Notes under the pieces: generated by a model
Told to the model about the DNA's origin: nothing
Databases searched by the model: none
Seen by the model: the letters and a program-made list of their open reading frames with translations, nothing else
Program-made: the position numbers and the translations under genes
Part shown: piece after piece, positions 12,161-40,840 of the stretch
How the letters are laid out: the number at the start of each line of letters is the position of its first letter
Numbering within the stretch: position 1 is the first letter of the stretch
From: Pseudobdellovibrionaceae bacterium
GTDB taxonomy: Bacteria; Bdellovibrionota; Bdellovibrionia; Bdellovibrionales; Bdellovibrionaceae
DNA: 64,000 nt
NCBI GenBank assembly: GCA_039810425.1
Contig: JBDHWW010000002.1
Location: 64,001-128,000 of the forward strand
Reading direction: 5' to 3'

Positions 12161-12192
12161 TTAAAAAAGTCTTTAATAATATGTAAATTCTG

Positions 12193-12230
12193 CAAAGGGC
12201 TCGTATTTTTTAGCGGGCCCTTTGTTTTTT
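12193..12230 (+). terminator. Rho-independent terminator
   Basis: caaagggctcg / cgggccctttg stem followed by a T run. Confidence 0.7.
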
Positions 12231-12281
12231 CCCCAAGTCTGGGGCATTTTCCTGCTGTTTTTAACCTAAGGAGAATTTTCT

Positions 12282-17899: not shown

Positions 17900-18010
17900 A
17901 TCCCTATTCTAGCAAGATTCGGACAAAATGAAAGGATGTCCTGGGCCTTCCACCCGTCATAAGTAGGACCTTGCGGAGGGAGGTCGCCTAGAGAAACAAC
18001 GAGGTGGGAA

Positions 18011-18392: not shown

Positions 18393-18505
18393 GTTCTTCT
18401 AACACTCTAGGCCATAAACTGTAAACCCCCAAACGCTGTTTTGAGTTCACAGGGGGCGATTTTTCTATTAATTTGGGGTTCTTCAGCTAAATAAGGATGC
18501 TACAT

Positions 18506-19869: not shown

Positions 19870-21294
19870 ATGGGCTTTAAAATAATTTCTCCCGCGCAGT
19901 TAGAAATTCAGCTGCGGCGGTTTGAAATTCGTCTATCGCAATACTGTGCCGCCAGATTTAAGTGGCTCACTCCTCTGGCGGCAGCGCTTCTGGTTCTCTT
20001 AGCCTTTTGGACTAAATCCCTGATTGAAGTAGACCCGAAGAGTTTGCAAAACTCCGGCATGTTCTTGTTTACCCACCATGCCCGTTATGTCATGCCTTTT
20101 CTTCTGGCGGGTGCGGGAATCTCTATTTTTTTCCATCGCAAAAATCGGGCGTATTATACGACAGCCGTTACCATGATCGCCTGGGCACTGAATTGCTACA
20201 TGCTTTTCCTGGGTAAAGTGCCCGCGGATGTTTTCATCTGCATTCTTTGTTCCTTTCCAACGAATTGTATCTTTACATACTATTTAGGGGTCCATCGCCG
20301 CGAAGGCAGGCCCCGGGTGAGCCTTTCCATCGGCATGATCGCGTACTTTGCATTGACATGGGTTTACATCAGTACGCGACTCTACTCGCAGGATGAATAT
20401 GGGCAGTTACTACTGTTTTGGAATTTCAAGCTGCAGTACATGATTCTTGTCGCCATTCAGCTGGCTTTCGCGTTTTCTCCCCGGCCGGTGGATCCATTTC
20501 TTGCTTATAATCCGGTGACAGCGGCCCACAGTATACTTTGGCCCGTCACGACTTTGTTGGCCCGGCGAAACCGCCCTGCGATTTCGCGACTCTGGTGGAA
20601 TGGGTTTTGGTGCGTAATTTTGGGATATCTGATTATCTCTCTGCGCATTCAATTGGATAAATCAGACTTGGACGTTTCTAAAAATCTCTTTATTCGATCG
20701 ACCTCACGCTATTTTCTGCTGATTCTATCCGACGTTGGTGTTTTCAATCTCGTGACGGGTGTTGCAAGACTTTACGGCTACCGCGCTCGCGATGCCACGA
20801 GCTTTTCTTGGTTGGCTCGAACTCCAGCGGAATATTGGCGCCGTGGCAGCGTTTACCACTACGACTTCATCAATAGATATCTTTATCGTCGGCTATGGAA
20901 ACGCATCCGGATCCGATTTGTAGTAGCTTTCATTTGTTTCTTTTTCTTCTATGTGATGAAAAATGGGGCCCTGGACGTGGGGGCCATGTTCCTAAATTGG
21001 ATGGGCGCTGATATTCATGGCGCGTTTTATCGTAGCCCCGATACCCGTTACTCGGTGATTTTGTTCCTCCTGCACTTTCTATTGCTGTACACGACTCAGA
21101 GGTATTGGTTTTTTGAATGGTCACACCAAAAGAAAGTTTGGCAATCGTGGGCCTCGGTTCTCGCAACCTATGCCCTGCAAATATCGGCCATTGCTCTAGC
21201 CGTTGTATTGAACACTCATGGCCATCAATGGTTGATGCATCTTTGGAAAATTCTTACTTTATTTGGGTCAGGGGGCGATCTAAAGCTTCTGTAA
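19870..21294 (+). CDS. MBOAT-family (DltB/AlgI-like) polytopic membrane protein, divergent
   Basis: Many TM helices; GVARLYGY...LARTPAEYWRR...RYLY matches the MBOAT GxAxLxG...SxxEFWRRWH...DYLY block. Confidence 0.7.
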   Translation: MGFKIISPAQLEIQLRRFEIRLSQYCAARFKWLTPLAAALLVLLAFWTKSLIEVDPKSLQNSGMFLFTHHARYVMPFLLAGAGISIFFHRKNRAYYTTAVTMIAWALNCYMLFLGKVPADVFICILCSFPTNCIFTYYLGVHRREGRPRVSLSIGMIAYFALTWVYISTRLYSQDEYGQLLLFWNFKLQYMILVAIQLAFAFSPRPVDPFLAYNPVTAAHSILWPVTTLLARRNRPAISRLWWNGFWCVILGYLIISLRIQLDKSDLDVSKNLFIRSTSRYFLLILSDVGVFNLVTGVARLYGYRARDATSFSWLARTPAEYWRRGSVYHYDFINRYLYRRLWKRIRIRFVVAFICFFFFYVMKNGALDVGAMFLNWMGADIHGAFYRSPDTRYSVILFLLHFLLLYTTQRYWFFEWSHQKKVWQSWASVLATYALQISAIALAVVLNTHGHQWLMHLWKILTLFGSGGDLKLL

Positions 21295-22066
21295 CTTTCT
21301 TCACTTTAGACATCATGCTTTTGAAATCATCAAAAGTCAGCGCTTGAGGTCCATCTGATAGCGCTTCCGCAGGACAAGGATGTACTTCCACGATAACGCC
21401 GTCAGCACCCGACGCCGCCGATGCAATTGCAAGATCTGGAACTAGGGCGCGGATCCCCACCGCATGTGACGGGTCGACAATGACTGGAAATGACGTATTC
21501 TTCTTTACGTAAACGACCGCATTTAAATCTAGAGTGTTACGAGTCGCCGTTTCAAATGTTCGAATTCCGCGCTCACAAAGAATGACGTTTTCGTTACCAC
21601 CGTTTGTGATGTACTCCGCTGCTTTAATCCACTCATCGATCAGGGCGGCGAACCCACGCTTCAAAAGGACCGGTTTGTTCTGCCTGCCCAGTTCTTTTAA
21701 GAGCGAGTAATTAAACATGTTCCGCGCACCCACTTGAAACATGTCGACGAAATCATGGACCTCTTCGACTTGCTCCGCGTCGGTAATTTCCGAAACGAGA
21801 CCCATGTTCGTTTCTTTTAAAACTTCTCGAACAAAATCAAACGAGCTTTCTCCCAAACCTTGAAAGGTCTTCGAAGACGTGCGCATCTTCCAAATCCCCC
21901 CGCGAAGTAAGCAGGCCCCATTGGATTTCACTGTCTGGGCTGTATCTAGAAACTGTTTTTTACTCTCGATGGAACAAGGGCCCGCAATGACTGAAAAGCT
22001 TTCGCCGCCGACTTCTACATTTCCGTAAGCAGTTCTAATTTTCACAACGCGGGTGAAGGGATTCAT
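21254..22066 (-). CDS. aroF: DAHP synthase, type I-beta, without N-terminal regulatory domain
   Basis: IAGPCSIES, LRGGxxKxRTS, QVGARNM, LCERGIRTFE and DPSHA motifs; 270 aa. Confidence 0.92.
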   Translation of the reverse strand: MNPFTRVVKIRTAYGNVEVGGESFSVIAGPCSIESKKQFLDTAQTVKSNGACLLRGGIWKMRTSSKTFQGLGESSFDFVREVLKETNMGLVSEITDAEQVEEVHDFVDMFQVGARNMFNYSLLKELGRQNKPVLLKRGFAALIDEWIKAAEYITNGGNENVILCERGIRTFETATRNTLDLNAVVYVKKNTSFPVIVDPSHAVGIRALVPDLAIASAASGADGVIVEVHPCPAEALSDGPQALTFDDFKSMMSKVKKVTEALDRPLTQIK

Positions 22067-22246
22067 ATAATAAGTATCGGTAAATATTAAACTTACCTCA
22101 AGCGCTCTCTCGCTGAAATGAACAGAGTTAACATCGCCGGCTACTTTTAAAATGTGAAGCCCGCACTAGGTCTAGCACCCAATCACTTTTTGCGCTGGTT
22201 TTTCGTACCGAGGAGTATAATAATTACTAAACAGTGAGAGGGAATC

Positions 22247-22543
22247 ATGAGCAAAAACGATACAGCACTGGCCATCTATGAGCTGAGAAATCAGATCGAC
22301 CTGATAGACAATCAAATTGCTGAAGCCCTGAATAAGCGCGCTGCCATCGTCGAAGAAGTTTGGACACTGAAACAGCAAAGCCAGCTCCCTTTTATTGATC
22401 AAGGCAGGGAAAACGCCATCTTCGCCCGGGTTCGCTCGATCGCAAAAGAGCCTCTGACGGCGGACTCCATGCAAAACATCTTTCAATGCATTCTCCACGA
22501 AGTCCGACCAAGAATTAAGAGTGCAAAAGCCAAATCAGGATAA
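22247..22543 (+). CDS. Chorismate mutase type II (AroQ), monofunctional
   Basis: LRNQIDLIDNQI..LNKR...K...D.GRE pattern; 98 aa. Confidence 0.9.
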   Translation: MSKNDTALAIYELRNQIDLIDNQIAEALNKRAAIVEEVWTLKQQSQLPFIDQGRENAIFARVRSIAKEPLTADSMQNIFQCILHEVRPRIKSAKAKSG

Positions 22544-22546
22544 AAA

Positions 22547-24019
22547 GTGGTCGCTAAAAACGTAAAGAAAAAAACACCCTTTGAAGTCGAGCCTGGCTTC
22601 TACCTAGAAGACAACCGCAACCAACGGGCTGTCGTCCCCGTCACCAAAGAAACTCTTGAAACCAAACACGCAGCCATTATGCCTGAATGGGTGGTCGAAG
22701 GAAAAAGCGTACTCGATTTGGGCTGCTGCCTGGCGGCTACGGGACATTGGTGTCTTTCTTATGGCGCAAAAAAGTACACTGGCGTGGAACTCCAGCCCGT
22801 CTATGCCAAAAAAGCCAAAGAGCTTCTTGGCAAGCATTGGTCTAAGGATCAGTTTAAAATTGTCCAATCGGAAATTTCTGATTTTCTCGATGAAGTCAAA
22901 AAAGATGAATACGATATCGTGATGATGGCTGGCGTGCTTTATGTCTTCCTCGACTACTTCTCAGTTCTGGAGAAAATGGCCTATGCTTCGAAGGAATGGG
23001 TTCTGCTGGAATCCATCATGCCACAAAAAAATTTAGATCCAGAAACTCCATATGTCGAATTCGTGAACAAGCAAACCATCACCTTACCGAACGGGCAAGA
23101 ACGCGCACGCGGTATTGGCAGTCGTGTGAGTCCCGGCGGCTTAAAGATGGTTATGGAGCACTTTGGTTTCACAAGCCAAGAGGGTATTATTACCCCGGCT
23201 GCGGTTAAAGACACTCACGATGCTTTCAACGAAGTAATTCCGGGTTGGAAATCTCCGGTGCGTTTTATGATGCGCTTTCAAAAAAGTGGCGCAAAAGTCG
23301 CGGATTTATCCACCGAGCTCAAAACGGGTAGATTCAAACAGCCTAAAGCCGGCTTCGACTCCTACAAGCCCGGAACGAAATTGAAAGCCGGCTCTTGGCA
23401 GTTTAACGACATAGTCGCCGATGAGTTTGAAAATATCGCACTGACTTCGATTCCCCGCTACAAAGAAGTCATCGGCATGTGTGTCGAACTCGCCGCCAAA
23501 GCATATCCGGATAAAAAGTGCCGTGTTCTGGATGTGGGTTCTGCCATTGGCAAAACCATGGACGAATTCCATAGCAACGGATTCAAAGACGTTTGGGGCG
23601 TTGAAAAGTCCGAGGCCATGATCAAGGGGTCTAAATACCGTGATCATGTTATTCACTCCGACACTTTCCCGCCTGGCCAAAAGCCCTTCCACATAGTGTG
23701 CGCGAACTGGACACTTCATTTCGTGAAAGAGCGCCGGGCTTATTTGAAAGATATCTACAATGGCCTGGAGAAAGATGGCTTTTTAATTTTGTCTGATAAA
23801 ACTCAGGGAAATCCATTTCTTCTTGAGCTGTATCATGATTTTAAGCGCCGAAATGGCCTGACAGAGCAGCAGATTGCAGACAAAGCGGAATCTATCAAAG
23901 GGGTTCTGGAACCTTATCCTTTGACTTGGTATTTGGTCGAATTGAAAAACATCGGTTTTAACGAGGTTCACGTGATCAATGCCTACTATCACTTCACAAC
24001 CTTTTTGGCGCGCAAGTAG
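22547..24019 (+). CDS. Fusion of a CmoB-like (carboxy)methyltransferase and a CmoA-like carboxy-SAM synthase domain
   Basis: N-half VLDLGC, GVLY, VLLES and PVR resemble CmoB. C-half WQFNDIVADEF..SIPRY, NWTLHF and HDFKRRNG resemble CmoA ([30 protein letters not shown]). Confidence 0.75.
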   Translation: MVAKNVKKKTPFEVEPGFYLEDNRNQRAVVPVTKETLETKHAAIMPEWVVEGKSVLDLGCCLAATGHWCLSYGAKKYTGVELQPVYAKKAKELLGKHWSKDQFKIVQSEISDFLDEVKKDEYDIVMMAGVLYVFLDYFSVLEKMAYASKEWVLLESIMPQKNLDPETPYVEFVNKQTITLPNGQERARGIGSRVSPGGLKMVMEHFGFTSQEGIITPAAVKDTHDAFNEVIPGWKSPVRFMMRFQKSGAKVADLSTELKTGRFKQPKAGFDSYKPGTKLKAGSWQFNDIVADEFENIALTSIPRYKEVIGMCVELAAKAYPDKKCRVLDVGSAIGKTMDEFHSNGFKDVWGVEKSEAMIKGSKYRDHVIHSDTFPPGQKPFHIVCANWTLHFVKERRAYLKDIYNGLEKDGFLILSDKTQGNPFLLELYHDFKRRNGLTEQQIADKAESIKGVLEPYPLTWYLVELKNIGFNEVHVINAYYHFTTFLARK

Positions 24020-24039
24020 TTTTATATTGATCGCTAAAT

Positions 24040-24762
24040 TTGTTTTTGAGACAGTTTATATCTATGGAAGCAGCTAAAGTAAGAGCCTCACGCAGAAGTA
24101 TTTGTATTTTGTGGCATTTGAAATCGAAAAGAATTCTCTGCGTGACTCGCTATACTAGTACCGCCCAAGCACTGATGTCTTCCGGAATGGAGATGGGTTT
24201 TAATATTGTGTCTAGGGCCAAACCCATCCTCCACTCCGAAGACCGTGTCGAGCGTTTAAGACGTATCCCGCCGGAAGAACTCCCGAACTATCTTTTCCAT
24301 CGCCAGTCCGGGACCATCGTAAAAATTGAGAATCCAAAGCCCCTCACAGAAAAACAGAAAAATGCCTGCATTCTGCTCGCCGGCCGCGCTCGTTATCTTC
24401 GACGGGTCACTCGGGTGGTGAGTCAGGCTCGTAAACGCGTGGCGCCTTCTGAGCTCTATGGAGCCTTCGTTGACCAGATTCGCCGCGAACAAGCGTTGAA
24501 GTTCCGTGCATCCGGGTATGACGAGGCTTTGATTCAAGAATGCCTTTTCGTATTTCAGTATGCCCAAGTGAAGAAGATCACGGCACGAGCGGCGGCTGAT
24601 GAGATCATCTTCCGCTTTAGCTTGTTTGAAGCTGACCTGTGGAAAACAGAAGAAGTGAAGTTGAAATATTACGACCTCTTTGCCAATGCCGCAAATTTAG
24701 AAGACCTTCATGATATTTTTCAAGATTTTATCAGGGAGTACTATTTAAATGCCCGTGTCTAA
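24040..24762 (+). CDS. Hypothetical protein (partner X1; paralog of 26898-27470)
   Basis: ORF in operon, overlapping the next gene; start is TTG24040 or ATG24064. Confidence 0.6.
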   Translation: MFLRQFISMEAAKVRASRRSICILWHLKSKRILCVTRYTSTAQALMSSGMEMGFNIVSRAKPILHSEDRVERLRRIPPEELPNYLFHRQSGTIVKIENPKPLTEKQKNACILLAGRARYLRRVTRVVSQARKRVAPSELYGAFVDQIRREQALKFRASGYDEALIQECLFVFQYAQVKKITARAAADEIIFRFSLFEADLWKTEEVKLKYYDLFANAANLEDLHDIFQDFIREYYLNARV

Positions 24763-25864: not shown

Positions 25865-25867
25865 AAT

Positions 25868-26908: not shown

Positions 26909-27470
26909 AGTAAAGCTCTTCATTTATACCGACGCTAAAACTCACCGTGTACTTTTAACAAAGCGAAGTACGAGGTTCAATTTTCTGGTAACTGTTCAAG
27001 GTGTTCATGTGCACATTCTCAGTTCGCGCCTTGAACTTCCGGAAATCAAGCCTATGGCTCAAACTTACACACCTAAAGTGGGACTGAAGAAGGCTGGATC
27101 AAAACTTGGCAAGCCGGCGCAAGAGCGCCTGGGCATTTTGCGTCGAAAGGTCGAGATCGTCATTCTGGTGCTGACGAGCCTCTATATTATGCGCGATGAG
27201 ATGAAGGCCACCTTCGCAAAGCGTGTTCTTGAAAACACCCCGATAAGTTCAGATAACTTCAAAAAATACTGGCTTTTTTCCGCCGAAGAAAAGAATCTCC
27301 TATCTGTGCGTCTTCAAAAATTCGAGAAAAAGTTCACTATGGCGGTCAATGCCGCAGAAACCCTGGATCAAGTGGATGCTCTTTACGAGCATCTGCATTT
27401 TAATGTGAATCTTGGGGTCTACTCAGTGATGAATAGAGAGAGAAAGGGGCTCCATGGCACAAAAAGTTAG
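26898..27470 (+). CDS. Hypothetical protein (partner X2; paralog of X1)
   Basis: GAGGAG RBS before ATG26898; overlaps both neighbours. Confidence 0.6.
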   Translation: MPDRVKLFIYTDAKTHRVLLTKRSTRFNFLVTVQGVHVHILSSRLELPEIKPMAQTYTPKVGLKKAGSKLGKPAQERLGILRRKVEIVILVLTSLYIMRDEMKATFAKRVLENTPISSDNFKKYWLFSAEEKNLLSVRLQKFEKKFTMAVNAAETLDQVDALYEHLHFNVNLGVYSVMNRERKGLHGTKS

Positions 27471-27798
27471 TATTGATATCTTAAAGAAGGCCCTTCTGGA
27501 GGTTAATCCTCGTGTGCGTAAGATAAACTTCACGGCACAAACAGATCTCTTTGAAGAGGGAATTCTGGATTCATACTCCGTGATTCAGCTTGTGAATACT
27601 TTTGAAAAGCGCTTTGGTATTGTCTTTGATTATGCCGATTTGAAGGCGGCGTATTTTAGGAACCTCATAAGTCTTATCGGTATCCTCACGATGAAGTATA
27701 AGCTCAAGGAGGGCAAGAATCCTCCGCCAAATAAGAAGAAAAAGAAAAGAAAGGCCAAAAAAGCCGGGGTCGTCAAAAAGGCTAAAAAGAAGAATTAA
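27454..27798 (+). CDS. Acyl/aminoacyl carrier protein (DltC-like) with Lys-rich tail
   Basis: DLFEEGILDS phosphopantetheine motif followed by IQLV..FEKRFGI. Confidence 0.85.
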   Translation: MAQKVSIDILKKALLEVNPRVRKINFTAQTDLFEEGILDSYSVIQLVNTFEKRFGIVFDYADLKAAYFRNLISLIGILTMKYKLKEGKNPPPNKKKKKRKAKKAGVVKKAKKKN

Positions 27799-28451
27799 AA
27801 CTTCGTAAATGTTCGATTTAACATCGGATGAGAATCATCTGTCGGCCCGGTATCCGAATCCGGATGAAAGGCGATAATTTTCAATTTTTCGCCGAAAGAA
27901 TTGAATGAGTGAACTAAACCCTCCGGTAAATAGAAGGCCATGCCCGGTTTCAAAGGGAGTTTCTGATTCGGCATCACACACTCCCCTTCACCTTCAAACA
28001 CGACACCAAGACGAACCGTCGGATGAATATGCGGCGTTTGAACCACTTTGGGCGGAAATACTAAAAGGTTGAAAACGGGATCCCCCATACGGGGCGGCGG
28101 AATGATAATTGTTGTGTTGGAATTATCGATGTAACAGAGACGACCACTGTCTTCTACGGGGCCACCTACATGGAGAAGCCCCCGGTATCCGACGCGTTCG
28201 ATGACGATGATTTCGCCATCCCCTTTGATATGAAACGGGCCGGGCGCAGAGAAGTACATGCCACCCTGAAGTGTGACATAGTGTTGCCCCTGGCGCTGCA
28301 ATTCATATTTGCCATTGAGAACGAATCCAAAGTAAGTACTTGTCGGGAGCGCAAAACTCTCATCACAGCGTCCGAAGCCTTTTAAGACACTCGGATACAT
28401 CGTGGCAGACGCATCTAAAACACATCCTTCTTTAACCTGCTTATAAATCAT
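27795..28451 (-). CDS. Cupin-domain protein
   Basis: QTPHIHP...G.VFEGEG...LKPG...LPEGLVHSF metal-binding cupin motifs. Confidence 0.8.
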   Translation of the reverse strand: MIYKQVKEGCVLDASATMYPSVLKGFGRCDESFALPTSTYFGFVLNGKYELQRQGQHYVTLQGGMYFSAPGPFHIKGDGEIIVIERVGYRGLLHVGGPVEDSGRLCYIDNSNTTIIIPPPRMGDPVFNLLVFPPKVVQTPHIHPTVRLGVVFEGEGECVMPNQKLPLKPGMAFYLPEGLVHSFNSFGEKLKIIAFHPDSDTGPTDDSHPMLNRTFTKF

Positions 28452-28540
28452 AGTTGCTCCCCCACTCCTCTACTTTAAAGACTATCTCCCTATTTCCATT
28501 CGCTGTCATGGTCCAATGCATATGGATCCAGACCTAAGTT

Positions 28541-29509
28541 TTAAATCGTCGCCTTCGCTTTCTGCTTCTTATGCATTGTTTTTGGCTTCTTTGTTTCCGC
28601 CTTCATCTTTTCTGCATTTTCTTTTCTATTTTTTTCCATGGCTAAATAGCTTGAGATCATCGGCTTGATTATTTGAAAGCTCTTATTGACGCCATTCGAA
28701 TTTAGCTGCGTCCTCGAACCACCCATAAGATTTTCTGAGCGGAAAAGTTGATAGAACTCCCGCGTAAGTAATTGAAAATTGAAGCCAGAATAAGCCAAAT
28801 ATTCTTTTATCTCTTTTTTATCTACGTTAGCGCCGCTGAAAAATATTTGAGCTACAGAGGAACTCATTTGATTGTCAGGAAATATTTCACGGTTATATCG
28901 TATTCTTTCTGGAGATATAAGAAAGACGACTCGGGCTTTATCTTTCAATAAGAACTGGATAGACCGGAGTGGCACGAAACTTACATCGAGAAAAAATTCC
29001 CTTTTGTCGGTAGCCGAGCCTTCGACATTCCAGCTCGTCTCCAATCTATCCTGTATGAAAATGGCCTTCTTAACGGGCAACAGATAATCTAATCTAGGCA
29101 ACAACACTCGCGACCACGTGGGTTGATTCGTAAAAATTTCATCTTTAGAAAAGACTTCTGCAGTGAGAGGCGTGTCAGGTAAGTTCCTGCTAAAAAGCAC
29201 TTCTTCAAAATCCCTTGCAAACATTCTGGACGGCTGGACATAGAAAATGTAGTCAGGCTGTGACGTCTTTAGACGCTCTTGGAGAAAGAAGTACTGGCTA
29301 AGAGCGAATCCCGGAGATGTCTTTAGCTCCACTTGAACCGGCCTTCCCAAAGACTGTAACAAATAGGATTCCAGGTTGTGCAGGCTCGTTTTGAGTTCTG
29401 GCGTATCAGCACTCCAAATCTCCGGCGCAACAAGCCACACGATCAGTGGCCCGTCATCTGCTTTAGCCTGTAGACATAATAGTACAAGAAAGCTTAAAAC
29501 GTACTTCAA
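28541..29509 (-). CDS. Secreted SGNH/DltD-AlgJ-like protein with degenerate catalytic motifs
   Basis: Signal peptide; VQVE...PGFALSQY...QPDYIF and QLNSNG resemble SGNH blocks; no GDS or DxxH. Confidence 0.45.
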   Translation of the reverse strand: MKYVLSFLVLLCLQAKADDGPLIVWLVAPEIWSADTPELKTSLHNLESYLLQSLGRPVQVELKTSPGFALSQYFFLQERLKTSQPDYIFYVQPSRMFARDFEEVLFSRNLPDTPLTAEVFSKDEIFTNQPTWSRVLLPRLDYLLPVKKAIFIQDRLETSWNVEGSATDKREFFLDVSFVPLRSIQFLLKDKARVVFLISPERIRYNREIFPDNQMSSSVAQIFFSGANVDKKEIKEYLAYSGFNFQLLTREFYQLFRSENLMGGSRTQLNSNGVNKSFQIIKPMISSYLAMEKNRKENAEKMKAETKKPKTMHKKQKAKATI

Positions 29510-30840: not shown

Positions 30841-33227
30841 CGAACAAGCCCCCCAGACGTATCGAGTGAAAAAATAATTTCGCCATTGTTAATCCAAGGA
30901 ACAGAACTCAAACGGTCTCCGAGATTAATCCGCCTTTTAATGGTCCCTTTTAAAGAATTAAAAATACATAGTTCTCTTTCAAAACAATTTGCCAGAAGCT
31001 CCTCCTGCTGATTTTTCCCTTTTTTTTCTACAAGCAATACCGGGCTTGAGAAAAAAACTCCGCTTCCTTGATGCCGCCACAGTTCTTTTCCGTTCGAGAA
31101 GTCAAGGGCTATGGTTCTTCCAGAAGACGTGCTAATGTAGACAGCATTCGCTTTTTTTGACCATGTCGGCGAGCTTTGACAAGCGCCTTCTAAAGGCGAA
31201 TTCCAAAGGAGCTCACCCGTAGCTGCCTTCACCTTATAGATATTCTTGTCCCAAGAGCAGAAGACCACCGAACCATCAGCGACCATGGGTGTGCCCTTAA
31301 TCGCCAGTCCAATGGGGTACCGCCATGCAAACTTCCCGGTCACCACATCTAACGCGTTTAAATAGCCATTGTTCGAGCCCACAAAGACCAGCCTGCCGTC
31401 TTCTGAAAGTGCGGGCGACGAATGCGCCTGATCTCCAAAGAAGGGACTCTTCCACTGAAGCTCTCCTGTGGCGGCGTCAATTTTGGCAATAAAGCCGTCC
31501 GGTGGTGAAAAGGTCTCTACAGCAACGTAGATTGAACCTCGATCATATAAAGGCGAAGATCCAATAGTCTGGCCCAGAGGTAATAGCCAATTGAGTTCAC
31601 CTGACTCTTTATTAGCTGAATAAAGCATGCCGTCGTAGTCACCCCAATAAACTGAGTTTCCCGCTATAAGCCCGCTGCCGTGGATTCCTTTGTCCGCTGA
31701 TGTCGTCCACCGCCAAATTTCCCTTCCTGACATATCTATCGCAGAGAAATAGCCCTGATCAGAACCAGCAAAGATCTTAGTGCCGTCTGATATCGGAGAA
31801 CTTTTACTCGCTGTATGCCGTGAATCATTCCAATTTGGTTTGCGCCATATAGGTCGGCTCATCGGATGAATTAGCTCCTTAGTCTGGACAACTCCAGTAC
31901 GTTGAGCATCTTCACGATACATCACCGTCCTCTGCGAAGAATCCAATTTCGCACTTTGATAGCGCCATGGAGTGATTTCAGCCGAGCCATTCTTATTTGT
32001 CTCTATCCAAGGGTTGCTCCAAAGAGGGTTAAAGGATGGACTGCTCTTACAAATGTCATCCAATTTTACCGTCGGATGAAAATTGCTTTCACTGCTCAAT
32101 CGCGTCTGCAAAAAAAGGCTTACGGAAGCAGCGTCATTGTTTTTGCGATTGTACTCGCAAAGACGACGTGCGAATTCGAGATATAAGTAGGGCTCACAGC
32201 GAATCCGGGTTCCCACGTTTTCCAAATTGATCTGCATTTGAACATAGTGCCCTACTCCTTTATTGATCACAAAGCTATGTCGGCAAACCGCGCGGGCATC
32301 AAACATGTTGAGAGAGACAAGCCGGCCCTCCCCTGTTAGCGCCGAATTACCAGACAAAAGCATGGGGTAAATTTGGGCAAGAATAAATGCCCCAATTAAG
32401 AAACGATGTGGTCTATAAGACCAAATATCAGAAAGTCGTGGCGACGGAGTATCCGTCTTAAACATGAATATAAAAATGCTGAGGACACAAAACATAACGG
32501 CTGGATAAAATAGTCCTACAATTTGAATGGAGTATATGTGAAAGATAAAAAATTGAATCAAGGAGACTTTTTGTAAATGTCGTCTCGAACTCAAAAGTAA
32601 AAAAGAAATCCCAATCTCTAAAACTATCACATATACCGTGGCAAGCTGAATTGGAATCCATTTTAATGGCCCAATATCACCATAGAGAGCACTTCCTGAA
32701 ATCCACTCATTGTTCAGCTTAAGAACACCTGCTCCTAGATAGATCATGACAATGGCTATTGGAATCAATTGAATTTTACGTGGGACTAACAAGAAAATAA
32801 GAATAAAGATGAAGTGGATATAATGAAAGTTGCCCATCAAACGATAGTCTTGCGAATAAATAAAGAACTTAAATAATAGAATAAAGAATGAATAGCTGTA
32901 AGCCGCGGCAATTGATTTTCTTAGCCATAACGTCGATCCAATCAAACCCGCAATAAAATAAGTGACAAGAATCCAACGCCACAGCTCTGGCGTGCCAAAG
33001 CGAAAACTTTCGCAAAATTGCATAAAGGGCTGGCAATACCCCGGCGTGGCTTTGCTGATCTGGTTGTAGACTTCGCCGACAAAAAACCAATAAGAAAAAG
33101 TGAAGAAGTGAATAAGGGACAAAAGAAATCCATAATTTCGCAACGCCGGCGATTTCTGAATTTCTTCCCTATTAACCCGTATGAATTGCTTACTTTTTGC
33201 TGGCAAACCAGACGTCAACGACTTCAC
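30831..33227 (-). CDS. HTTM (vitamin-K carboxylase-like) membrane domain fused to a PQQ/BamB-type beta-propeller
   Basis: TM region with YLGAGVLKLNNEWISG and EGRLVSLNMFD; C-terminal repeats SSP...V...ALD..TG...W. Confidence 0.7.
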   Translation of the reverse strand: MKSLTSGLPAKSKQFIRVNREEIQKSPALRNYGFLLSLIHFFTFSYWFFVGEVYNQISKATPGYCQPFMQFCESFRFGTPELWRWILVTYFIAGLIGSTLWLRKSIAAAYSYSFFILLFKFFIYSQDYRLMGNFHYIHFIFILIFLLVPRKIQLIPIAIVMIYLGAGVLKLNNEWISGSALYGDIGPLKWIPIQLATVYVIVLEIGISFLLLSSRRHLQKVSLIQFFIFHIYSIQIVGLFYPAVMFCVLSIFIFMFKTDTPSPRLSDIWSYRPHRFLIGAFILAQIYPMLLSGNSALTGEGRLVSLNMFDARAVCRHSFVINKGVGHYVQMQINLENVGTRIRCEPYLYLEFARRLCEYNRKNNDAASVSLFLQTRLSSESNFHPTVKLDDICKSSPSFNPLWSNPWIETNKNGSAEITPWRYQSAKLDSSQRTVMYREDAQRTGVVQTKELIHPMSRPIWRKPNWNDSRHTASKSSPISDGTKIFAGSDQGYFSAIDMSGREIWRWTTSADKGIHGSGLIAGNSVYWGDYDGMLYSANKESGELNWLLPLGQTIGSSPLYDRGSIYVAVETFSPPDGFIAKIDAATGELQWKSPFFGDQAHSSPALSEDGRLVFVGSNNGYLNALDVVTGKFAWRYPIGLAIKGTPMVADGSVVFCSWDKNIYKVKAATGELLWNSPLEGACQSSPTWSKKANAVYISTSSGRTIALDFSNGKELWRHQGSGVFFSSPVLLVEKKGKNQQEELLANCFERELCIFNSLKGTIKRRINLGDRLSSVPWINNGEIIFSLDTSGGLVRWK

Positions 33228-34752
33228 CCTTCATTCTTTTACCGCTCTTCAATAGAGTAAAAGAGGACCGCTCTCTTAGCTCCGCCCGACTCCCAATTGC
33301 CAACGCCGCATTCTTCGAGTATCTCAAAGAAATAGATTCGACACCCGCCTCTTTCAAAGTTTTTAAATCCTTTTTTAGAGTTACACCCTTCCCTGTGGAG
33401 TCATGCCAAAGCCGCAGTTGGGGATAAATCGGATCTTTGGCGTCGATAACTCCATCTCCATTCTCATCAAATACGGCCAAGAGTTCAAACCCATTTAAGG
33501 AACTATCCTCGCTGCCAAACATTTCAGTGACATCGTTGATTATTCCATCGCTGTTTCTATCCAAAACTAAGAAGGCCGCATTAAGCTCTGGCTCTGGCCA
33601 ATAAGTTTTATCCGCATAACTACTCATTTTGAAATCGATGAATCGATTAAACTGGGCTTCCTGTCGATCGAAGAACAGCATCAATGGAGAAAAGTACCCC
33701 CCACAGAAATCGACTTGGCCTGGAAAGGCCGCGGTGATATTTAAGACTTTGAAATCGCTGGACCAAAAGGCTTCCCAATTTACGGAAATACCGCCATCTC
33801 TGCCCATATATTTTTGAATGTCCGCGGGCGCGTTAGTGTAATTGAATGGATTTGGAACTGGATTAACAACCGCATCGATGGCCCGTATTTGGTTCCACCA
33901 GGCGAAGCGTGGCTGGCCCCATCCGGGATCTTTATTAAATGCCGGCCCATCACGCATTGGTACCTCATCCACCACGGGGGTTCCTGGATCATTGATCGTT
34001 CCGCCACCGCCATCGCCGCCGCCATCACCGCCATCGCCGCCTGCATATGACTTTTCCGTAGCGCCCCATGAAAGCCACTTAAATGGAGTCATGAAAGAGG
34101 ATAGTGCCGTTTGAATTCCCCAAGGCCTTATCTTTTGCTTTTCTTCAAGCTTTGAGACCTTAACTTGTCCCACGACACTGTACACATCTTGAGTGACATC
34201 AACTTGGCTCACTAAAGAAGCGAAGTCGGAATTCGTATAGGTATTTCCCGTGAGTGGAACCCCGGGGGTTATGCTTAGTGGTGCATTAAAAATGATAGTA
34301 TTTCCAAAAGCGCTGGTGAGGCCTGGCTGGCGTCCGGTCGGCTCGTAAGGCCAGTCATTGTTGTCTGGCGATTTATCAACATAAAAAACAGAGCCATTAA
34401 CAATAGCCAGCGGATTAGGAAAGGGTACCATCGTGCTTTGCTTTGTATTCATAACCATCCAGCCAGGAAATACGATGGAAAATGAATCTCCATTTCGAAA
34501 GGCCATACTAAACTTGATACTTCCGGTCGGCGAAATAGGATTTGGAACACTACGAAGATTCGTGCCAAAACACGAAACATTCATTCTTACTTGAAAGCCC
34601 ATTGTAGGATCGCTAAAAGAGCTGGCTTGATCAGAAAATATTATTGTATCTGTGGCCCGGCCCGCTTGGCTGGGACGAACCAACACTTGAGCCCCCTGCA
34701 CCGGGCCTGATGTTGCTGCCAATAAAATGCTTAGAAATACTTTTTTCTTCAT
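33190..34752 (-). CDS. Secreted protein with C-terminal FrpC self-processing-module-like EF-hand domain
   Basis: Signal peptide; SPL...LVLDRNSDGIIND..EMFG...NGFELLAVFDENGDGVIDAKD..Y..LRLWHD. Confidence 0.7.
   Translation of the reverse strand: MKKKVFLSILLAATSGPVQGAQVLVRPSQAGRATDTIIFSDQASSFSDPTMGFQVRMNVSCFGTNLRSVPNPISPTGSIKFSMAFRNGDSFSIVFPGWMVMNTKQSTMVPFPNPLAIVNGSVFYVDKSPDNNDWPYEPTGRQPGLTSAFGNTIIFNAPLSITPGVPLTGNTYTNSDFASLVSQVDVTQDVYSVVGQVKVSKLEEKQKIRPWGIQTALSSFMTPFKWLSWGATEKSYAGGDGGDGGGDGGGGTINDPGTPVVDEVPMRDGPAFNKDPGWGQPRFAWWNQIRAIDAVVNPVPNPFNYTNAPADIQKYMGRDGGISVNWEAFWSSDFKVLNITAAFPGQVDFCGGYFSPLMLFFDRQEAQFNRFIDFKMSSYADKTYWPEPELNAAFLVLDRNSDGIINDVTEMFGSEDSSLNGFELLAVFDENGDGVIDAKDPIYPQLRLWHDSTGKGVTLKKDLKTLKEAGVESISLRYSKNAALAIGSRAELRERSSFTLLKSGKRMKGEVVDVWFASKK
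34000..34041 (-). repeat. Gly/Asp low-complexity repeat encoding GGDGGDGGGDGGGG
   Basis: ccgcca/ccatcg triplet repeats inside the 33190-34752 CDS. Confidence 0.8.
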
Positions 34753-34753
34753 T

Positions 34754-35749: not shown

Positions 35750-35755
35750 ACCTAC

Positions 35756-36292
35756 CTAGTTTGTATTAATCAAAAAGTAGTAAAAATTATCCTGCAACTC
35801 TGTTGCCGTTGCACTCAGATCTTTCTGAATATGGGCGACACGAATCGTTCCTTCAAACATCCCACTCACGTTTGTCGAGGGTAAAATTGTATATGAAATT
35901 AAACCGTCGCAATACGAATCCGTGGGTAAATTGGATCCATTAGGCGTCGCTGTTAATGTCGGATTATTTGGATCACATTTTGGAGGGTTACCATTACTAC
36001 CGACATACATAACAGCTCCAGCGTAACCGTAAGAGAAACTTGACAAGAAACTTTGGCTGGTCCCCGCATTAATAGTAAAGTTTTTCTGATAAACTGCAGG
36101 TTCACCTTTAATCGTTTCAATAATTTGAGAAACGACTTGATATTCAGATGTCGCTCTCACTGTATTACTGTCTGTTTTAAAAAGCTGAAGACTTCCATCC
36201 ACAATCATATAGAACACTGCCACCAGCAAAACCATCGCTAACAAGCTTTCAATAATAGTCTGACCATGGTTGTTTCTGATGAAATTTCTCAC
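35756..36292 (-). CDS. Type IV minor pilin (PilV-like)
   Basis: Class III signal HG/QTIIE followed by a hydrophobic helix. Confidence 0.75.
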   Translation of the reverse strand: MRNFIRNNHGQTIIESLLAMVLLVAVFYMIVDGSLQLFKTDSNTVRATSEYQVVSQIIETIKGEPAVYQKNFTINAGTSQSFLSSFSYGYAGAVMYVGSNGNPPKCDPNNPTLTATPNGSNLPTDSYCDGLISYTILPSTNVSGMFEGTIRVAHIQKDLSATATELQDNFYYFLINTN

Positions 36293-39045
36293 TGTAACTC
36301 GCTTGTTCGACTGATTTCATTCACAATGTAGTTCACTGCATGCTTTTGGCATTGCACGTAGGTGTTCCCTGCCACAATACCGCAATCAGGATCCACCGCT
36401 GTCCAGGTAAAAGGATTCGCACTATCACGCAACGAAATGACATTACATTTCCGGAAACCGTCATATTCAGTATTGGTCAAATTCGGCCACCAAATTGGGA
36501 GTGATGGCGGCGTAGAACACGCATTGCCGTTTTTATCTTTCAAAATACCTTCGGCAATCAAATCATTTGTCGATTGAGAATGATAAATACTTCTAAACGA
36601 GATGCCATTCAGAACCGCCGATGGATCGATTTCGGCCCTACCTACGATGAAAGTTCCTATCATTTTTAAAGGTGAAGTTCGCGGCTGAATGACCAGCCGA
36701 TCACAAGTCATAAAACCAGCAGCGACCGTCGTTGAACTAGGAACGATGCATTCACTGATAATCGATTTCACATAAAACACACCGTTTTGTATCGTAACAG
36801 TATTCCCCGGGCTTACCGGAATATTGTCATAGGCCTTGTCCGGTTGCGTGGGCATAGGGTCCGGAGCAAAATGCCAAGAATGGCGCGTTGTCGAGGCAAA
36901 CGGACTGTTCCAACCAATAGATTTAAAGGCAATAGCATTTGATCCGCCATTATTCGAAAAGCATTTATTAACCAAACCTTGATAGTCCCAAGCTGGGTTC
37001 GGCAAAGTTGCCGTTGGAATATCAGTCGGAACTAGATTAATCGGGACGGCACCAGGCACGGGAGTGGGGTTTGGGGCAAGAGTCGTCAAACTAGTCACCT
37101 GATAAGGGGCTAAGGGTCCCAATGGTGGCGGCGGATAGTCAACAGGGAGATTTTGCGAAGGACCATCCAGTCTTTGGAAAGCCGCGACCGCGCCATGAGG
37201 AGATCCATCAGAATTGATCCAGCTTAAAGTGTGTGTTGGGCCGGTCGCAGATCCACCCGTGACCTGGAAATGAAGCCAACCTTCCATCGAATGCCCTTCA
37301 ATGAGCGAAGGATCTGGGGTCACCAACGGATCTGCAGGATAGCGTCGATCACGGCCCGCAAAAACACCTAAATCAAACGCCTTCATATAAAGAGAAAAGC
37401 GCTGAACAGTTTCTGGAGGATACCGTGTCGCCGGGAGATTAACCCGTAACTCTACCAACTGCTGCTGCATAGCCGGGTTGCCGCCTATGTAAACCGGTAG
37501 TAACGCGACTTCAACTCTTCCATTCCTGGGTTTACCGTTTATATATGGATGCTTCATGGTTGCCATAGATCCTGGGCGAAGCGTGAATGCGGTGGTGTAC
37601 GCATTTGTAGTTCCAGGCGTTGTCGTCTGATAGGTACTCCCGCCCAGTGCGGTACCTGCCGCGGCAGATCCTGAGTCAAATCTAAAAAACATGGTCGCCT
37701 GACCATTTAATTTGTTTCCAATAGTCATTGTGCTTATGTCCGTCAAAAAAGCTCGTCCCATAGCCCCATAGGGGAAGTAAGGCCGCAGCTCTTGAGGTAA
37801 AAACATGTTTCCGCGGGTTAATCCCAATAGAAATCGCAGATGCGGCGTCGACACACCAGGATCTGGGGGAAGCTGTAAAAAGACCAAATCTGAATCGTTA
37901 GTGCTTGCCAACCTGTAAAATACCTTATTAACACCAATGCAATCAGATGCAGCCTGAGCCGCGTTTGCAGGCGGCGGTACCGCATTGTATCCGGCCAGGA
38001 CATCCAGCCCCAGATCCCGAATACCATCAACATCAATACCTTTTTTAAAACCGCCGAAATTTGGTAAAGCCGAATATAAGTAGCCGGACATGTTCCCGTT
38101 ATTAGGAGCGGTGAAAGGACTTCCGCTCCTCATAATACGTCCGCCGCTACTGCCGTCGAATCCACCCAAAATCACGCGATTTGTAAACGTCGCTGAAGTG
38201 TAGCTGGCGACGGTATCAGGAATATGAATATCACCATTAACAAAAACGGGACTCTCAAAAGTGATGCCCGCGCCGCCCGTTCCAGATGGTATTCCAATAT
38301 CACCGCTATTACCGGCAAGCCCGGGGACTGTACCATCCAAATATAAGTCCCGTGGGACAATCAAAGAGAAATAGTTTAATTCGCGAGGATTCACCATCAA
38401 CCTGCTCGTCGCTGAAATGGCAGAAAGACTTCTGAAAATCACGGACCCCGACATTAATGTCACTTTAACATCCAAAAAAATTTCGCGGCCACGGCGAGGA
38501 ATATTTATATTGTTCACTCTTTTAACTTTAATCCCAATTTGCGTAACCGCGCTGCCGGTCTTATCAAGATTTTTAATAATGTTGAATAACGGATGTGCGC
38601 TAGTGATTTGGCTAACATTCACTATAGTACTAATCGTTTCAGATACTATTCCTGATGATGTAAAAGTCGCGTCGCCCGCATTCAAATCACGAAGTGCGGT
38701 GATCGCGCTACCATCCAAAGTCAAGCGCTCAAGACTCATGAGATTTTTAATATCGCAACTTGCCAAATCGCGAGTCCAGGTCGAAGTCATGCACCAGCGA
38801 TTCTTGATGGCATAATTAGTATAATCAATCACACCATCCAAGACGGCGGAATACGAAACGATATTACGATTGATAATAGCTTGCCGCTTAGAAATCAGAA
38901 CCAATTCTATGAGGGAAAAAAACAAGGCGGCTGCAATCGGGGCAGCGATCATTACTAAAAGGAGTACGGAGCCTTTGTTGTTCCGGCCAAGGCGGAGCCA
39001 ACGACGGCGAGTCACTTTCACCATAGGGTCGTTTAATCGAGACAC
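36289..39045 (-). CDS. Very large PilX/GspK-like minor pilin (918 aa)
   Basis: Basic leader, KG/SVLLLVM lacking Glu5 (PilX/GspK hallmark); large Pro/Gly/Thr-rich, Cys-containing ectodomain. Confidence 0.7.
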   Translation of the reverse strand: MSRLNDPMVKVTRRRWLRLGRNNKGSVLLLVMIAAPIAAALFFSLIELVLISKRQAIINRNIVSYSAVLDGVIDYTNYAIKNRWCMTSTWTRDLASCDIKNLMSLERLTLDGSAITALRDLNAGDATFTSSGIVSETISTIVNVSQITSAHPLFNIIKNLDKTGSAVTQIGIKVKRVNNINIPRRGREIFLDVKVTLMSGSVIFRSLSAISATSRLMVNPRELNYFSLIVPRDLYLDGTVPGLAGNSGDIGIPSGTGGAGITFESPVFVNGDIHIPDTVASYTSATFTNRVILGGFDGSSGGRIMRSGSPFTAPNNGNMSGYLYSALPNFGGFKKGIDVDGIRDLGLDVLAGYNAVPPPANAAQAASDCIGVNKVFYRLASTNDSDLVFLQLPPDPGVSTPHLRFLLGLTRGNMFLPQELRPYFPYGAMGRAFLTDISTMTIGNKLNGQATMFFRFDSGSAAAGTALGGSTYQTTTPGTTNAYTTAFTLRPGSMATMKHPYINGKPRNGRVEVALLPVYIGGNPAMQQQLVELRVNLPATRYPPETVQRFSLYMKAFDLGVFAGRDRRYPADPLVTPDPSLIEGHSMEGWLHFQVTGGSATGPTHTLSWINSDGSPHGAVAAFQRLDGPSQNLPVDYPPPPLGPLAPYQVTSLTTLAPNPTPVPGAVPINLVPTDIPTATLPNPAWDYQGLVNKCFSNNGGSNAIAFKSIGWNSPFASTTRHSWHFAPDPMPTQPDKAYDNIPVSPGNTVTIQNGVFYVKSIISECIVPSSTTVAAGFMTCDRLVIQPRTSPLKMIGTFIVGRAEIDPSAVLNGISFRSIYHSQSTNDLIAEGILKDKNGNACSTPPSLPIWWPNLTNTEYDGFRKCNVISLRDSANPFTWTAVDPDCGIVAGNTYVQCQKHAVNYIVNEISRTSELQ

Positions 39046-40012: not shown

Positions 40013-40840
<828 letters not shown>

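Follow-up and report, generated by a model that had tools for sequence, protein, structure and literature searches.

A candidate carrier/MBOAT-type envelope modification locus with AsnB-fold PP-loop ligases in a Pseudobdellovibrionaceae bacterium

The Dlt system (DltA/DltB/DltC/DltD) D-alanylates teichoic acids by means of a small carrier protein, an MBOAT-superfamily protein and an ATP-dependent carboxylate-activating enzyme. Here we describe a gene block of about 19 kb in a Pseudobdellovibrionaceae bacterium (assembly GCA_039810425.1, contig JBDHWW010000002.1, positions 64,001 to 128,000 of the forward strand; "the window" is this whole stretch of 64,000 nucleotides) that recalls Dlt. As in that system, a small carrier with an LDS serine is found beside an MBOAT-superfamily gene, an activating enzyme of this kind is encoded in the same operon, and in related loci the enzyme is an AMP-binding one, as in Dlt itself. 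There are also marked differences: no block protein has an AMP-binding (ANL/DltA-like) domain, and two PP-loop ligases with small partners are present instead; the MBOAT relative lacks the canonical histidines, there is no convincing SGNH/DltD partner and the host is Gram-negative; and the acid is apparently not D-alanine, given that the AMP-binding relatives resemble acyl-CoA ligases. Our tentative reading, to which we give a little less than an even chance, is that the block is a functionally linked accessory system for Dlt-like carrier/MBOAT envelope acylation, in which an AsnB-fold PP-loop ligase and its small partner stand in for the ANL enzyme. The block probably builds and exports a surface modification.

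The enzymes of the block also recall a phage pathway. As described in part of PMC12783734, published in 2025, phage CmoA and CmoX act with the asparagine-synthetase homologue CmoY to form 5-carboxymethylcytosine and its glycine amide in DNA; the combined chemistry of a CmoA, a carboxymethyl transferase and an AsnB-type amide ligase is thus already known. The block similarly unites a CmoA-type synthase, a second transferase and a ligase of asparagine-synthetase fold, and homologues of its fused methyltransferase and of the pair formed by a PP-loop ligase (PP) and the small protein X1 are phage-borne. Unlike the phage set, it has no SPPC motif (CmoX is a C5-cytosine methyltransferase homologue according to the same part of PMC12783734), its ligase has no sequence match in a phage GenBank set, and it adds an obligatory X1, a cupin, a carrier and a membrane protein. 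A CmoA-like half paired with a second Rossmann methyltransferase is also seen in CmoA/CmoB, which make uridine 5-oxyacetic acid (cmo5U) in tRNA, and in TglE/TglF (PMC10491745, in part); in the block, in contrast, the second methyltransferase is fused N-terminally, falls far short of the CmoB cut-off (20.5 against 209 bits) and is nearest to protein arginine methyltransferases (PRMTs). With the AsnB-family ligases (AsnB, beta-lactam synthetase, carbapenam synthetase, TsnB9), the first block ligase (PPa) shares the PP-loop motif and the synthetase-domain fold, but it has no glutaminase domain, carries its own motifs and matches structures by sequence over no more than 20 residues of the PP-loop. 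Finally, PatA/PatB and AlgI/AlgJ (scheme in part of PMC12148441) resemble the block in that an MBOAT relative lies near a secreted protein, here one that is placed near GDSL/AlgX clusters by Atlas, a language-model search whose scores serve as leads only; those systems nevertheless use acetyl-CoA, have no carrier and need the MBOAT histidine and an SGNH Ser-His-Asp, and neither histidine is conserved here. Full-text searches of the literature (supplements not covered) gave no description of this gene combination, which fits the novelty claimed for it in a first-pass annotation of the window; the chemical logic, as noted, has been published.

In the mechanism that we propose, a carboxylic acid would be built in the cytoplasm, activated with ATP, thioesterified on the DltC-like carrier and handed to the divergent MBOAT-family protein. 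Prephenate and S-adenosylmethionine (SAM) would yield carboxy-SAM, from which the N-terminal methyltransferase would move the carboxymethyl group onto a nucleophile; PPa and X1 could then convert the carboxylate to an amide, the second ligase PPb and its partner X2 might load the carrier, and the cupin may modify the acid. The MBOAT-like protein would pass the group outwards, via residues other than the canonical histidines, and a convergent envelope operon would supply handlers or the acceptor, perhaps the product of a pilin-like cassette, or else an envelope lipid or polymer.

What mainly supports a Dlt-like mechanism is that the same carrier/MBOAT-like pair is served by either of two activating enzymes. 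Across 64 genome loci and the window, 5 of 65 sources have the MBOAT-like cluster, and it is precisely these 5 that have the carrier cluster. Phylum-wide, the MBOAT-like family was found in 9 of 301 genomes, and eight further loci were fetched (L-numbers denote fetched loci, G-numbers the genomes of relatives, and the block of G000 is that of the window). A homologous carrier is present in 11 of the 14 Bdellovibrionota loci with the family that were examined. The neighbouring enzyme is a PP-loop ligase in seven of them (window, G005, G002, L013, L062, L064, L086) and an AMP-binding enzyme in five (L089 to L093); neither was seen in the last two, which are short or end with the contig. A cupin accompanies the MBOAT-like gene in 7/14 loci, with either activating enzyme (for example in L086, L092 and L093), and pyridoxal phosphate (PLP) decarboxylase, ATP-grasp and desaturase genes also occur in this set. 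We read this pattern as one type of pathway in which the activating enzyme has been displaced by a non-orthologous one. In L093, the nearest relatives of the AMP-binding enzyme are malonyl-, feruloyl-, coumaroyl- and oxalyl-CoA ligases and not DltA, so the acid is probably an organic acid and not D-alanine. Two of these loci have further features. In L091 (3828-12913), a canonical MBOAT (PF03062, 82.7 bits) stands beside the AMP-binding enzyme, and a histidine-less MBOAT-like gene lies 2.5 kb away with a desaturase, a carrier and an ATP-grasp enzyme. In L086 (7184-7765 and 14045-18470), genes for a superoxide dismutase, a propeller, a nitroreductase-family protein, a fatty-acid hydroxylase and a 967-aa sulfatase/LtaS-like protein adjoin the run of cupin, MBOAT-like, PP-loop, partner and carrier genes, a hint of a lipid or envelope target.

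Protein families in the window were assigned by scans against Pfam and NCBIfam, with bit scores compared to the curated cut-offs. The carrier exceeds the PF00550 cut-off (25.1 against 20.8 bits) and DltC models stay below theirs (28.3 against 68); its Ser40, in the LDS motif, is invariant in 10/10 aligned carriers, including those beside AMP-binding enzymes. Its Lys-rich, strongly basic tail is seen only in the window and G002 orthologues and not in eight more distant carriers; a Lys-rich tail also ends the 322-aa secreted protein of the block. The membrane protein, with about six hydrophobic segments and 6 close homologues, has no direct Pfam or NCBIfam match, and its profile gives only chance connexin matches among PDB sequences. 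When a profile of nine family members was run against 1.84 billion representatives, 267 proteins were returned; PF03062 is carried (E<=0.001) by 11 of 43 sampled matches, 9 of them above the cut-off and all 11 among the weaker matches, and the core common to the family reads G..RL.G.R...NF..P.LA.SP.EFW.R. The conserved histidines of MBOAT proteins are catalytic. At the positions given by the canonical MBOAT rows of the alignment, both are replaced in the window family: the WH of FWRRWH by GS, GN or EN, and the GxWH histidine by KN, RN, KI and others, although two distant members retain a histidine at the second site. Judging from its sequence, the protein is a member of the MBOAT superfamily without the active-site histidines.

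The block itself is real, as the first-pass annotation had proposed: 17 open reading frames (ORFs) were confirmed between a TfoX-domain gene and an RDD/SHOCT gene (Table 1). One run on the plus strand encodes chorismate mutase, a 490-aa double methyltransferase, X1, PPa, PPb, X2 and the carrier (gaps of -29 to +20 nt); a run on the minus strand encodes a 918-aa protein, two prepilin-type proteins, a 520-aa secreted protein, a transmembrane (TM)-propeller protein, a rhodanese-domain protein and the 322-aa protein (gaps of -38 to +6 nt), with the cupin gene 89 nt beyond its end. The packing of both runs is operon-like, and they converge stop-to-stop with an overlap of 4 nt. The membrane-protein gene, on the plus strand, and a gene for 3-deoxy-D-arabino-heptulosonate 7-phosphate (DAHP) synthase, on the minus strand and 180 nt divergent from chorismate mutase, complete the block. 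Of 7 genomes of the genus, only 3 (G000; G005, 93% identity; G002, 72%) have the fused methyltransferase at full length, so the block is accessory. In G005, all 17 block proteins are colinear and the 7/7 flank proteins tested are present too. In G002, 16/17 block proteins are colinear (46-79% identity), the DAHP synthase is absent, the membrane-protein gene lies directly 5' of chorismate mutase in the same direction, and 0/7 flank proteins occur within the 30 kb fetched around the block. Such colinearity, in G002 with different flanks, argues against chance adjacency: the block is an accessory unit that keeps its gene order in another genomic setting. TfoX and RDD homologues are on other contigs in G002 and far apart in G001 and G004, so that these last two genomes offer no clean empty site and this test does not define island borders. 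Within the block, GC content (0.43-0.47, against 0.43-0.52 in the rest of the window) is not distinctive, and there is no tRNA gene at its borders.

Both ligases, about 31% identical, have an SGGIDS PP-loop and no N-terminal class-II glutaminase domain, only some 85-95 residues preceding the PP-loop. The AlphaFold2 model of PPa (pLDDT 95) aligns with AsnB-family synthetase domains at Z scores of 10.7-13.4 over 204-259 residues, other PP-loop families reaching at most 9.3. Its top structural relatives are TsnB9 (Z 13.4), beta-lactam synthetase, ASNS/AsnB (12.1-12.4) and CarA/carbapenam synthetase, of which the matches cover the synthetase halves only, from target residues ~125-180 onward. The predicted fold of PPa is thus that of AsnB-type carboxylate-adenylating ligases. 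Against PDB sequences, the PPa profile finds only the 20-residue PP-loop of LarE (E 0.59), and the family has conserved motifs of its own, WW.NFS.KWQ and F..T..FQLWS. A search at E<=0.001 gives 375 homologues of PPa, mostly from the candidate phyla radiation (CPR); no Pfam domain occurs in the best 120. Names seen among the homologues, from Bdellovibrionales and CPR groups, read "hypothetical protein". Nothing was found at E<=1e-3 in the phage GenBank collection. A midpoint-rooted FastTree phylogeny of 106 ligases (those of genome loci of >=280 aa, every second viral one of >=300 aa, and L086; support values were not inspected) places PPa with the L012 and L013 orthologues, next to a CPR clade and then a viral clade, and PPb with Bdellovibrionota ligases encoded beside carrier and MBOAT-like genes, with a Mu-like prophage clade as sister. 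Because PPa and PPb fall in separate clades, the operon appears to combine two subfamilies of one ligase family.

The small partners are less easily placed. X1 adjoins a PP-loop gene in 28/65 genome sources and 73/77 viral loci. Its AlphaFold2 model (pLDDT 87.7) consists of a small beta domain followed by long helical hairpins; the best fold matches are uncharacterised phage proteins (TM-scores 0.66/0.76, E 1.8e-9), with weaker resemblance to DUF4376 and tail-fibre-assembly proteins and, in the PDB, to generic three-helix bundles only (Z <=10.1 over 78 residues). The X1 profile has no match below E 0.38 among PDB sequences, and Pfam searches at E<=1 with 20 partner proteins (X1, X2 and prophage types) gave no meaningful match, DUF4376 and Tfa not being recovered. 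In L012, L013, L059, L062, L063, L064 and L086, as with X2 in the window, the gene after the PPb-type ligase encodes a protein of 163-197 aa. Compared by profile, X1 and X2 give a collinear but weak alignment (hhalign E 0.002, probability 13.8%), and pairwise BLAST between the two finds nothing. A predicted PPa+X1 complex scored 0.07 and 0.12 against a mark of 0.32, which is uninformative either way on binding.

Upstream of the ligases, the genes point to prephenate and carboxy-SAM. The DAHP synthase (NF006421, 390 bits, cut-off 335) is one of three DAHP_synth_1 genes in the genome and lies in the block of G000 and G005, not G002; chorismate mutase is kept in both G005 and G002. Chorismate synthase is encoded elsewhere in the genome, so prephenate can be made, and gene content supports a dedicated prephenate supply, by chorismate mutase and in two genomes also by DAHP synthase, beside the CmoA-type domain. 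The C-half of the fused methyltransferase aligns end to end with the CmoA structures 1im8 (1.3e-17) and 4gek (2e-15), including the stretch HDFKR.NG..E; it matches TIGR00740 (E 1.7e-27; 96.7 bits, under the cut-off of 193.3) and phrog_4752 (3.1e-43), and is a putative CmoA-type carboxy-SAM synthase-like domain. It is the only CmoA-like sequence in the genome, a search of which gave no canonical CmoA and no CmoB. The N-half is a Rossmann class-I methyltransferase whose best PDB sequence relatives are PRMT1 (2.2e-5); no CmoB chain occurs among its 29 PDB matches at E<=1, and it reaches 20.5 bits with the CmoB model NF011650 (cut-off 209) and 16.2 with TIGR00452 (cut-off 275). The residues by which CmoB binds carboxy-SAM, Lys91, Tyr200 and Arg315 (PMC10491745, in part), cannot be aligned to the N-half, which looks PRMT-like and not CmoB-like; the L063 orthologue touches the CmoB family PF08003 at 2e-5. 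That locus (8135-13864), from an alphaproteobacterial metagenome-assembled genome, has split methyltransferase genes, a PP-loop ligase, a 197-aa partner, a cupin and a DUF6065 gene, beside a flagellin gene. The possibility that the fusion is simply the housekeeping tRNA cmo5U enzyme pair was considered and rejected as the main explanation, because the fusion occurs in only 3/7 genus genomes, its N-half is not CmoB-like and it travels with a phage-type module. Of the CmoB-CmoA fusion that was first annotated, the CmoA-like half therefore stands and the CmoB half does not; the chorismate mutase beside a CmoA-type domain supports the proposed cytoplasmic supply of prephenate.

The minus-strand operon is tied to the enzymes beyond the genus because propeller homologues cluster with PP-loop genes: homologues of the propeller and of the TM domain accompany these genes in 13/65 sources. 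In L086 the two are separate genes, and the propeller gene is two genes from the cupin-MBOAT-PP-X-carrier run. Likewise, the minus-strand cupin is tied to the plus-strand operon since cupins recur with the MBOAT-like gene and with X1 and a PP-loop ligase; cupin homologues adjoin PP-loop genes in 31/77 viral loci and 10/65 genome sources. The propeller is above the PF13570 cut-off. Its TM part matches Pfam DoxX at E 0.1 and, in Atlas, MauE/DoxX (0.86-0.88) and HTTM (0.83), under the lead threshold of 0.9. The rhodanese-domain protein has an N-terminal hydrophobic segment and matches TIGR03865 at 1.2e-10, below the cut-off. For the 322-aa protein, Atlas gives scores of 0.91-0.93 with 136-150 shared features and GDSL/AlgX clusters among the matches, a lead only; it has seven homologues, and no histidine is invariant across the 8 aligned family members.

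The remainder of the minus-strand run is a pilin-like cassette. A class III prepilin signal (Gly-1, Glu+5) is present in the 331-aa and 178-aa proteins and not in the 918-aa protein. The former two are respectively PilW-like (PF07963, 20.1 bits against a cut-off of 21.2) and PilV-like (N_methyl match at 0.023), and general Pfam and NCBIfam scans gave no PilY1/PilC family match, the pilus assembly genes of the genome not having been searched for. The 918-aa protein is the sole match in its genome; in G001, G005 and G015, the first gene of the same cassette encodes a homologue of 931-1008 aa. The 520-aa family is found in 18/41 relatives and is multi-copy (9 matches in G001, 11 in G005). In 4/4 other cassette copies examined, the genes follow one another as large protein, prepilin, prepilin and EF-hand protein, and no propeller, rhodanese, 322-aa, cupin, PP-loop or carrier gene lies within 19 kb; the EF-hand-like secreted protein of these copies (L177, L178, L179 and L180, from G001, G015 and G005) has 380-479 aa. 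A prepilin-motif scan of the 64 other genome loci found no pilin-like gene beside PP-loop genes, one extra match looking spurious. The multi-copy cassette may represent a set of alternative pilus-tip or adhesin modules; by its gene order it appears to be a generic unit, fused transcriptionally to the propeller-rhodanese-322-aa genes only in this block.

Taken gene by gene, the labels of the first-pass annotation fared unevenly. Those of the DAHP synthase, chorismate mutase, the two AsnB-like ligases, carrier, cupin, rhodanese and propeller hold, by family, motif or fold. The MBOAT-like label survives as a remote homology found by profile, with both canonical histidines missing, and the pilin labels survive for the PilV- and PilW-like proteins, which have prepilin signals, and not for PilX, which has no family match and only an N-terminal hydrophobic segment. 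HTTM (PF05090, the HTTM/VKGC membrane domain) is unsupported (DoxX at E 0.1 and Atlas leads below 0.9), SGNH is an Atlas lead in a family with no invariant histidine, and the SPM label comes down to a weak EF-hand motif. In the neighbourhood comparison that had been suggested, the carrier/MBOAT-like/PP-loop set, the cupin and the propeller recur beyond the genus, and no pilin-like gene was seen beside PP-loop genes in the 64 other genome loci.

Parts of the system are far more widespread than the block. At least 562 stretches in a viral collection encode relatives of the X1/PP-loop/cupin module. In the 77 viral loci kept, a ligase ORF is found in 76, X1 in 73 and a cupin in 31, in the order X1, PP, cupin; in 3/77 a full-length homologue of the fused methyltransferase (39-41% identity) is encoded just 5' of the module, and in 2 more it is split. 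The viral neighbours are ribonucleotide reductase, thymidylate synthase, dCMP deaminase, PhoH, MazG-like and exonuclease genes, and also desaturase-like, Asp/Asn-hydroxylase-like, radical SAM (rSAM)-SPASM, B12-rSAM, 2-oxoglutarate (2OG)-oxygenase and GNAT genes; in one jumbo-phage contig, a tail-fibre gene neighbours the module. Mu-like prophages of Xanthomonas, Comamonas, Undibacterium and Ralstonia carry a PPb-type gene and a 197-199-aa partner after baseplate J and a tail-fibre-like gene; in L048 (8383-11008; L043, L042, L051 and L053 are alike) these are followed by a small cupin-like ORF, a 2OG oxygenase, DUF5675 and a holin. In CPR loci, X1 lies immediately 5' of the ligase, and YcaO, nitroreductase-family and PQQ-like propeller genes are often found further 5'. 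This conserved cluster (L016, L019, L033 and others, ~5000-11100 in each), which often includes membrane-anchored proteins of no known family and lies in the vicinity of EF-Tu or S10 genes, resembles a set for modifying peptides or proteins.

Outside the block, an Rfam scan of the whole window gave no riboswitch or leader 5' of the operon, its sole match being an RNase P RNA; short ORFs that overlap this RNA are probably not genes. A gene for a protein with a Bd3614-like deaminase domain adjoins the RDD/SHOCT gene and is kept together with the flanks in G005.

Table 1. Genes of the block and neighbouring features, in window coordinates.
Feature	Position	Strand	Basis
RNase P RNA, class A	18008..18391	-	RF00010 219 bits
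Short ORFs overlapping RNase P RNA	18078..18424		
TfoX-domain gene (flank)	18953..19726	-	
MBOAT-like multi-pass membrane protein, 474 aa	19870..21294	+	remote MBOAT-superfamily homologue by profile
DAHP synthase type I-beta, 270 aa	21254..22066	-	PF00793 1.2e-70; NF006421
Chorismate mutase, AroQ type, 98 aa	22247..22543	+	PF01817 1.3e-20
Methyltransferase/CmoA-like fusion, 490 aa	22547..24019	+	C-half TIGR00740; N-half class-I methyltransferase
X1, small partner of PPa-type ligase (family ~225-240 aa)	24040..24762	+	adjacency; no Pfam family
PPa, AsnB-fold PP-loop ligase, 371 aa	24749..25864	+	SGGIDS at residue 98; predicted fold
PPb, paralogous PP-loop ligase, 346 aa	25868..26908	+	SGGIDS at residue 88
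X2, small partner of PPb-type ligase, 196 aa	26880..27470	+	position after PPb-type genes
DltC-like carrier, 114 aa, Lys-rich C-terminal tail	27454..27798	+	PF00550 25.1 bits
Cupin_2 protein, 218 aa, HxH metal motif	27795..28451	-	PF07883 5e-12
Secreted 322-aa protein, Lys-rich tail	28541..29509	-	possibly SGNH/AlgX-like (Atlas lead); no Pfam family
Exported protein with C-terminal rhodanese-like domain, 444 aa	29506..30840	-	PF00581 1e-10
~6-TM domain + PQQ-like beta-propeller fusion, 798 aa	30831..33227	-	PF13570 149 bits
Secreted 520-aa protein, Gly/Asp-rich stretch, EF-hand-like C-terminal domain	33190..34752	-	EF-hand E 1.2e-3
Prepilin-type protein, PilW-like, 331 aa	34754..35749	-	RG/FTITE (slash, cleavage position); PF07963 20.1 bits
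Prepilin-type protein, PilV-like, 178 aa	35756..36292	-	HG/QTIIE; ComGE model 6.3e-4
Large protein, 918 aa, one N-terminal hydrophobic segment	36289..39045	-	no Pfam/NCBIfam match
RDD/SHOCT gene (flank)	39341..39973	-	
Bd3614-like deaminase domain protein	40013..40831	-	PF14439 6.7e-34

Several observations weigh against Dlt-like acylation as we propose it. Without both canonical histidines, the MBOAT relative may not be an acyltransferase, going by the alignment, and the proposed SGNH partner lacks an invariant histidine as well; of the relay of carrier, MBOAT and SGNH proteins first suggested, what remains is the carrier/MBOAT pair in 11/14 loci with its two types of activating enzyme. The resemblance of the L093 enzyme to acyl-CoA ligases makes the analogy to D-alanylation a formal one. 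L013 has the MBOAT-like protein, X1, PPa, PPb, X2 and the carrier but no methyltransferase or chorismate mutase, so that carboxy-SAM is not obligatory for the core. X1 and the ligase occur without carrier or MBOAT-like genes in CPR and phages, which argues for a function independent of the envelope relay, and the phage module is often found among nucleotide-metabolism genes. This last point, together with the phage CmoA/CmoX/CmoY precedent (PMC12783734, in part), leads to a different reading, in which the enzyme operon would be a DNA or tRNA hypermodification pathway of phage origin: a base would be carboxymethylated by the N-terminal methyltransferase and amidated by the PP-loop ligases, the carrier, MBOAT-like and envelope genes serving otherwise. 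The fused methyltransferase-X1-PP sets of viral contigs (3 fused and 2 split among 77 loci), the proximity of X1 and PP to ribonucleotide reductase, thymidylate synthase, dCMP deaminase, MazG-like and exonuclease genes, the lack of a canonical CmoA or CmoB in the genome and even the strongly basic tail of the carrier would fit. We nevertheless consider it unlikely: none of 24 window proteins checked (17 from the block and 7 from its flanks) has an SPPC motif and hence none is a C5-cytosine methyltransferase, the N-half is nearest to PRMTs, and Pfam and NCBIfam reveal no nuclease, glycosylase, helicase, DNA-binding or DNA methyltransferase family in the block. Moreover, PPa has no match in the phage GenBank collection (E<=1e-3) and so is not closely related to CmoY, in 7 loci PPb-type ligases are encoded alongside carrier and MBOAT-like genes, and the viral neighbours include tail-fibre, rSAM-SPASM, Asp/Asn-hydroxylase-like and desaturase-like genes.

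Alternatively, the plus-strand operon might be a small-molecule cluster, making for example an amino-acid-like antimetabolite or signal on the carrier, with the MBOAT-like protein used for export or self-protection and the envelope operon merely adjacent. Carboxy-SAM is known in two natural-product pathways, TglE/F (3-thiaglutamate, assembled on a peptide) and MccS/MccB (PMC10491745, in part), the nearest AsnB-fold structures include the natural-product enzymes TsnB9, beta-lactam synthetase and carbapenam synthetase, and a dedicated precursor supply (chorismate mutase, DAHP synthase), a free-standing carrier and the PLP decarboxylase, ATP-grasp and desaturase genes of related loci could all be accommodated. 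This seems to us quite improbable, because the block has no thioesterase, condensation, ketosynthase or transporter family (Pfam/NCBIfam), because the carrier/MBOAT-like pairing (11/14 loci) is a hallmark of trans-membrane acyl transfer and not of soluble release, and because the minus-strand cupin and propeller recur with the enzymes in distant taxa. The pilin-like cassette is another matter. It could be a bystander, the block then consisting of two or three unrelated units co-inherited in one genus with nothing put on a pilus, and this, which is compatible with Dlt-like acylation by the other genes, we judge to be an evenly balanced question. The cassette is multi-copy in the group, it stands without the enzymes and other block genes in 4/4 other copies, and no pilin-like gene was seen beside PP-loop genes elsewhere. 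On the other hand, it overlaps the propeller gene by 38 nt in a gapless run on to the 322-aa gene, its arrangement is kept in G002 at 46-64% identity, and no second copy of its large protein was found in the genome. Installation on a pilus, as the first-pass annotation had it, is thus unsupported, the link of pili to the enzymes consisting of synteny in three genomes of one genus.

A bolder reading, which we regard as a long shot, would be that phages, CPR episymbionts and Bdellovibrionota share a module (X1, PP-loop ligase, cupin and sometimes the fused carboxy-SAM synthase/methyltransferase) that modifies their own host-recognition fibres or surfaces, such as tail fibres, pilus-tip or adhesin cassettes and surface proteins. 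X1 would be a fibre-binding adaptor, and Bdellovibrionota would have coupled the module to a carrier and a histidine-less MBOAT for delivery outside the cytoplasm. All three live by attaching to other bacteria, and there are hints in this direction: the module lies directly after a tail-fibre gene in Mu-like prophages and beside one in a jumbo-phage contig, beside flagellin in an alphaproteobacterium and beside the only pilin-like cassette of this genome, and the fold of X1 weakly resembles DUF4376 and tail-fibre-assembly proteins.

What would be new here is a variant of carrier/MBOAT envelope acylation, and the ligase-partner-cupin module at its core belongs to a large uncharacterised family. 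If the proposed system is confirmed, (i), carrier/MBOAT envelope acylation, mainly known as D-alanylation in Gram-positive bacteria, would extend to predatory Gram-negatives, where it would rely on another class of activating enzyme and on an MBOAT fold that does not need the textbook histidines; (ii), carboxy-SAM would gain a further use beyond tRNA, two natural products and phage DNA; and (iii), a large unnamed family of AsnB-fold ligase, X1 and cupin, with relatives in at least 562 stretches of viral sequence and hundreds among CPR proteins, all lacking a Pfam domain and a name, would become approachable via a cultivable predator. Such a modification could bear on prey recognition and surface camouflage, in predators and phages alike.

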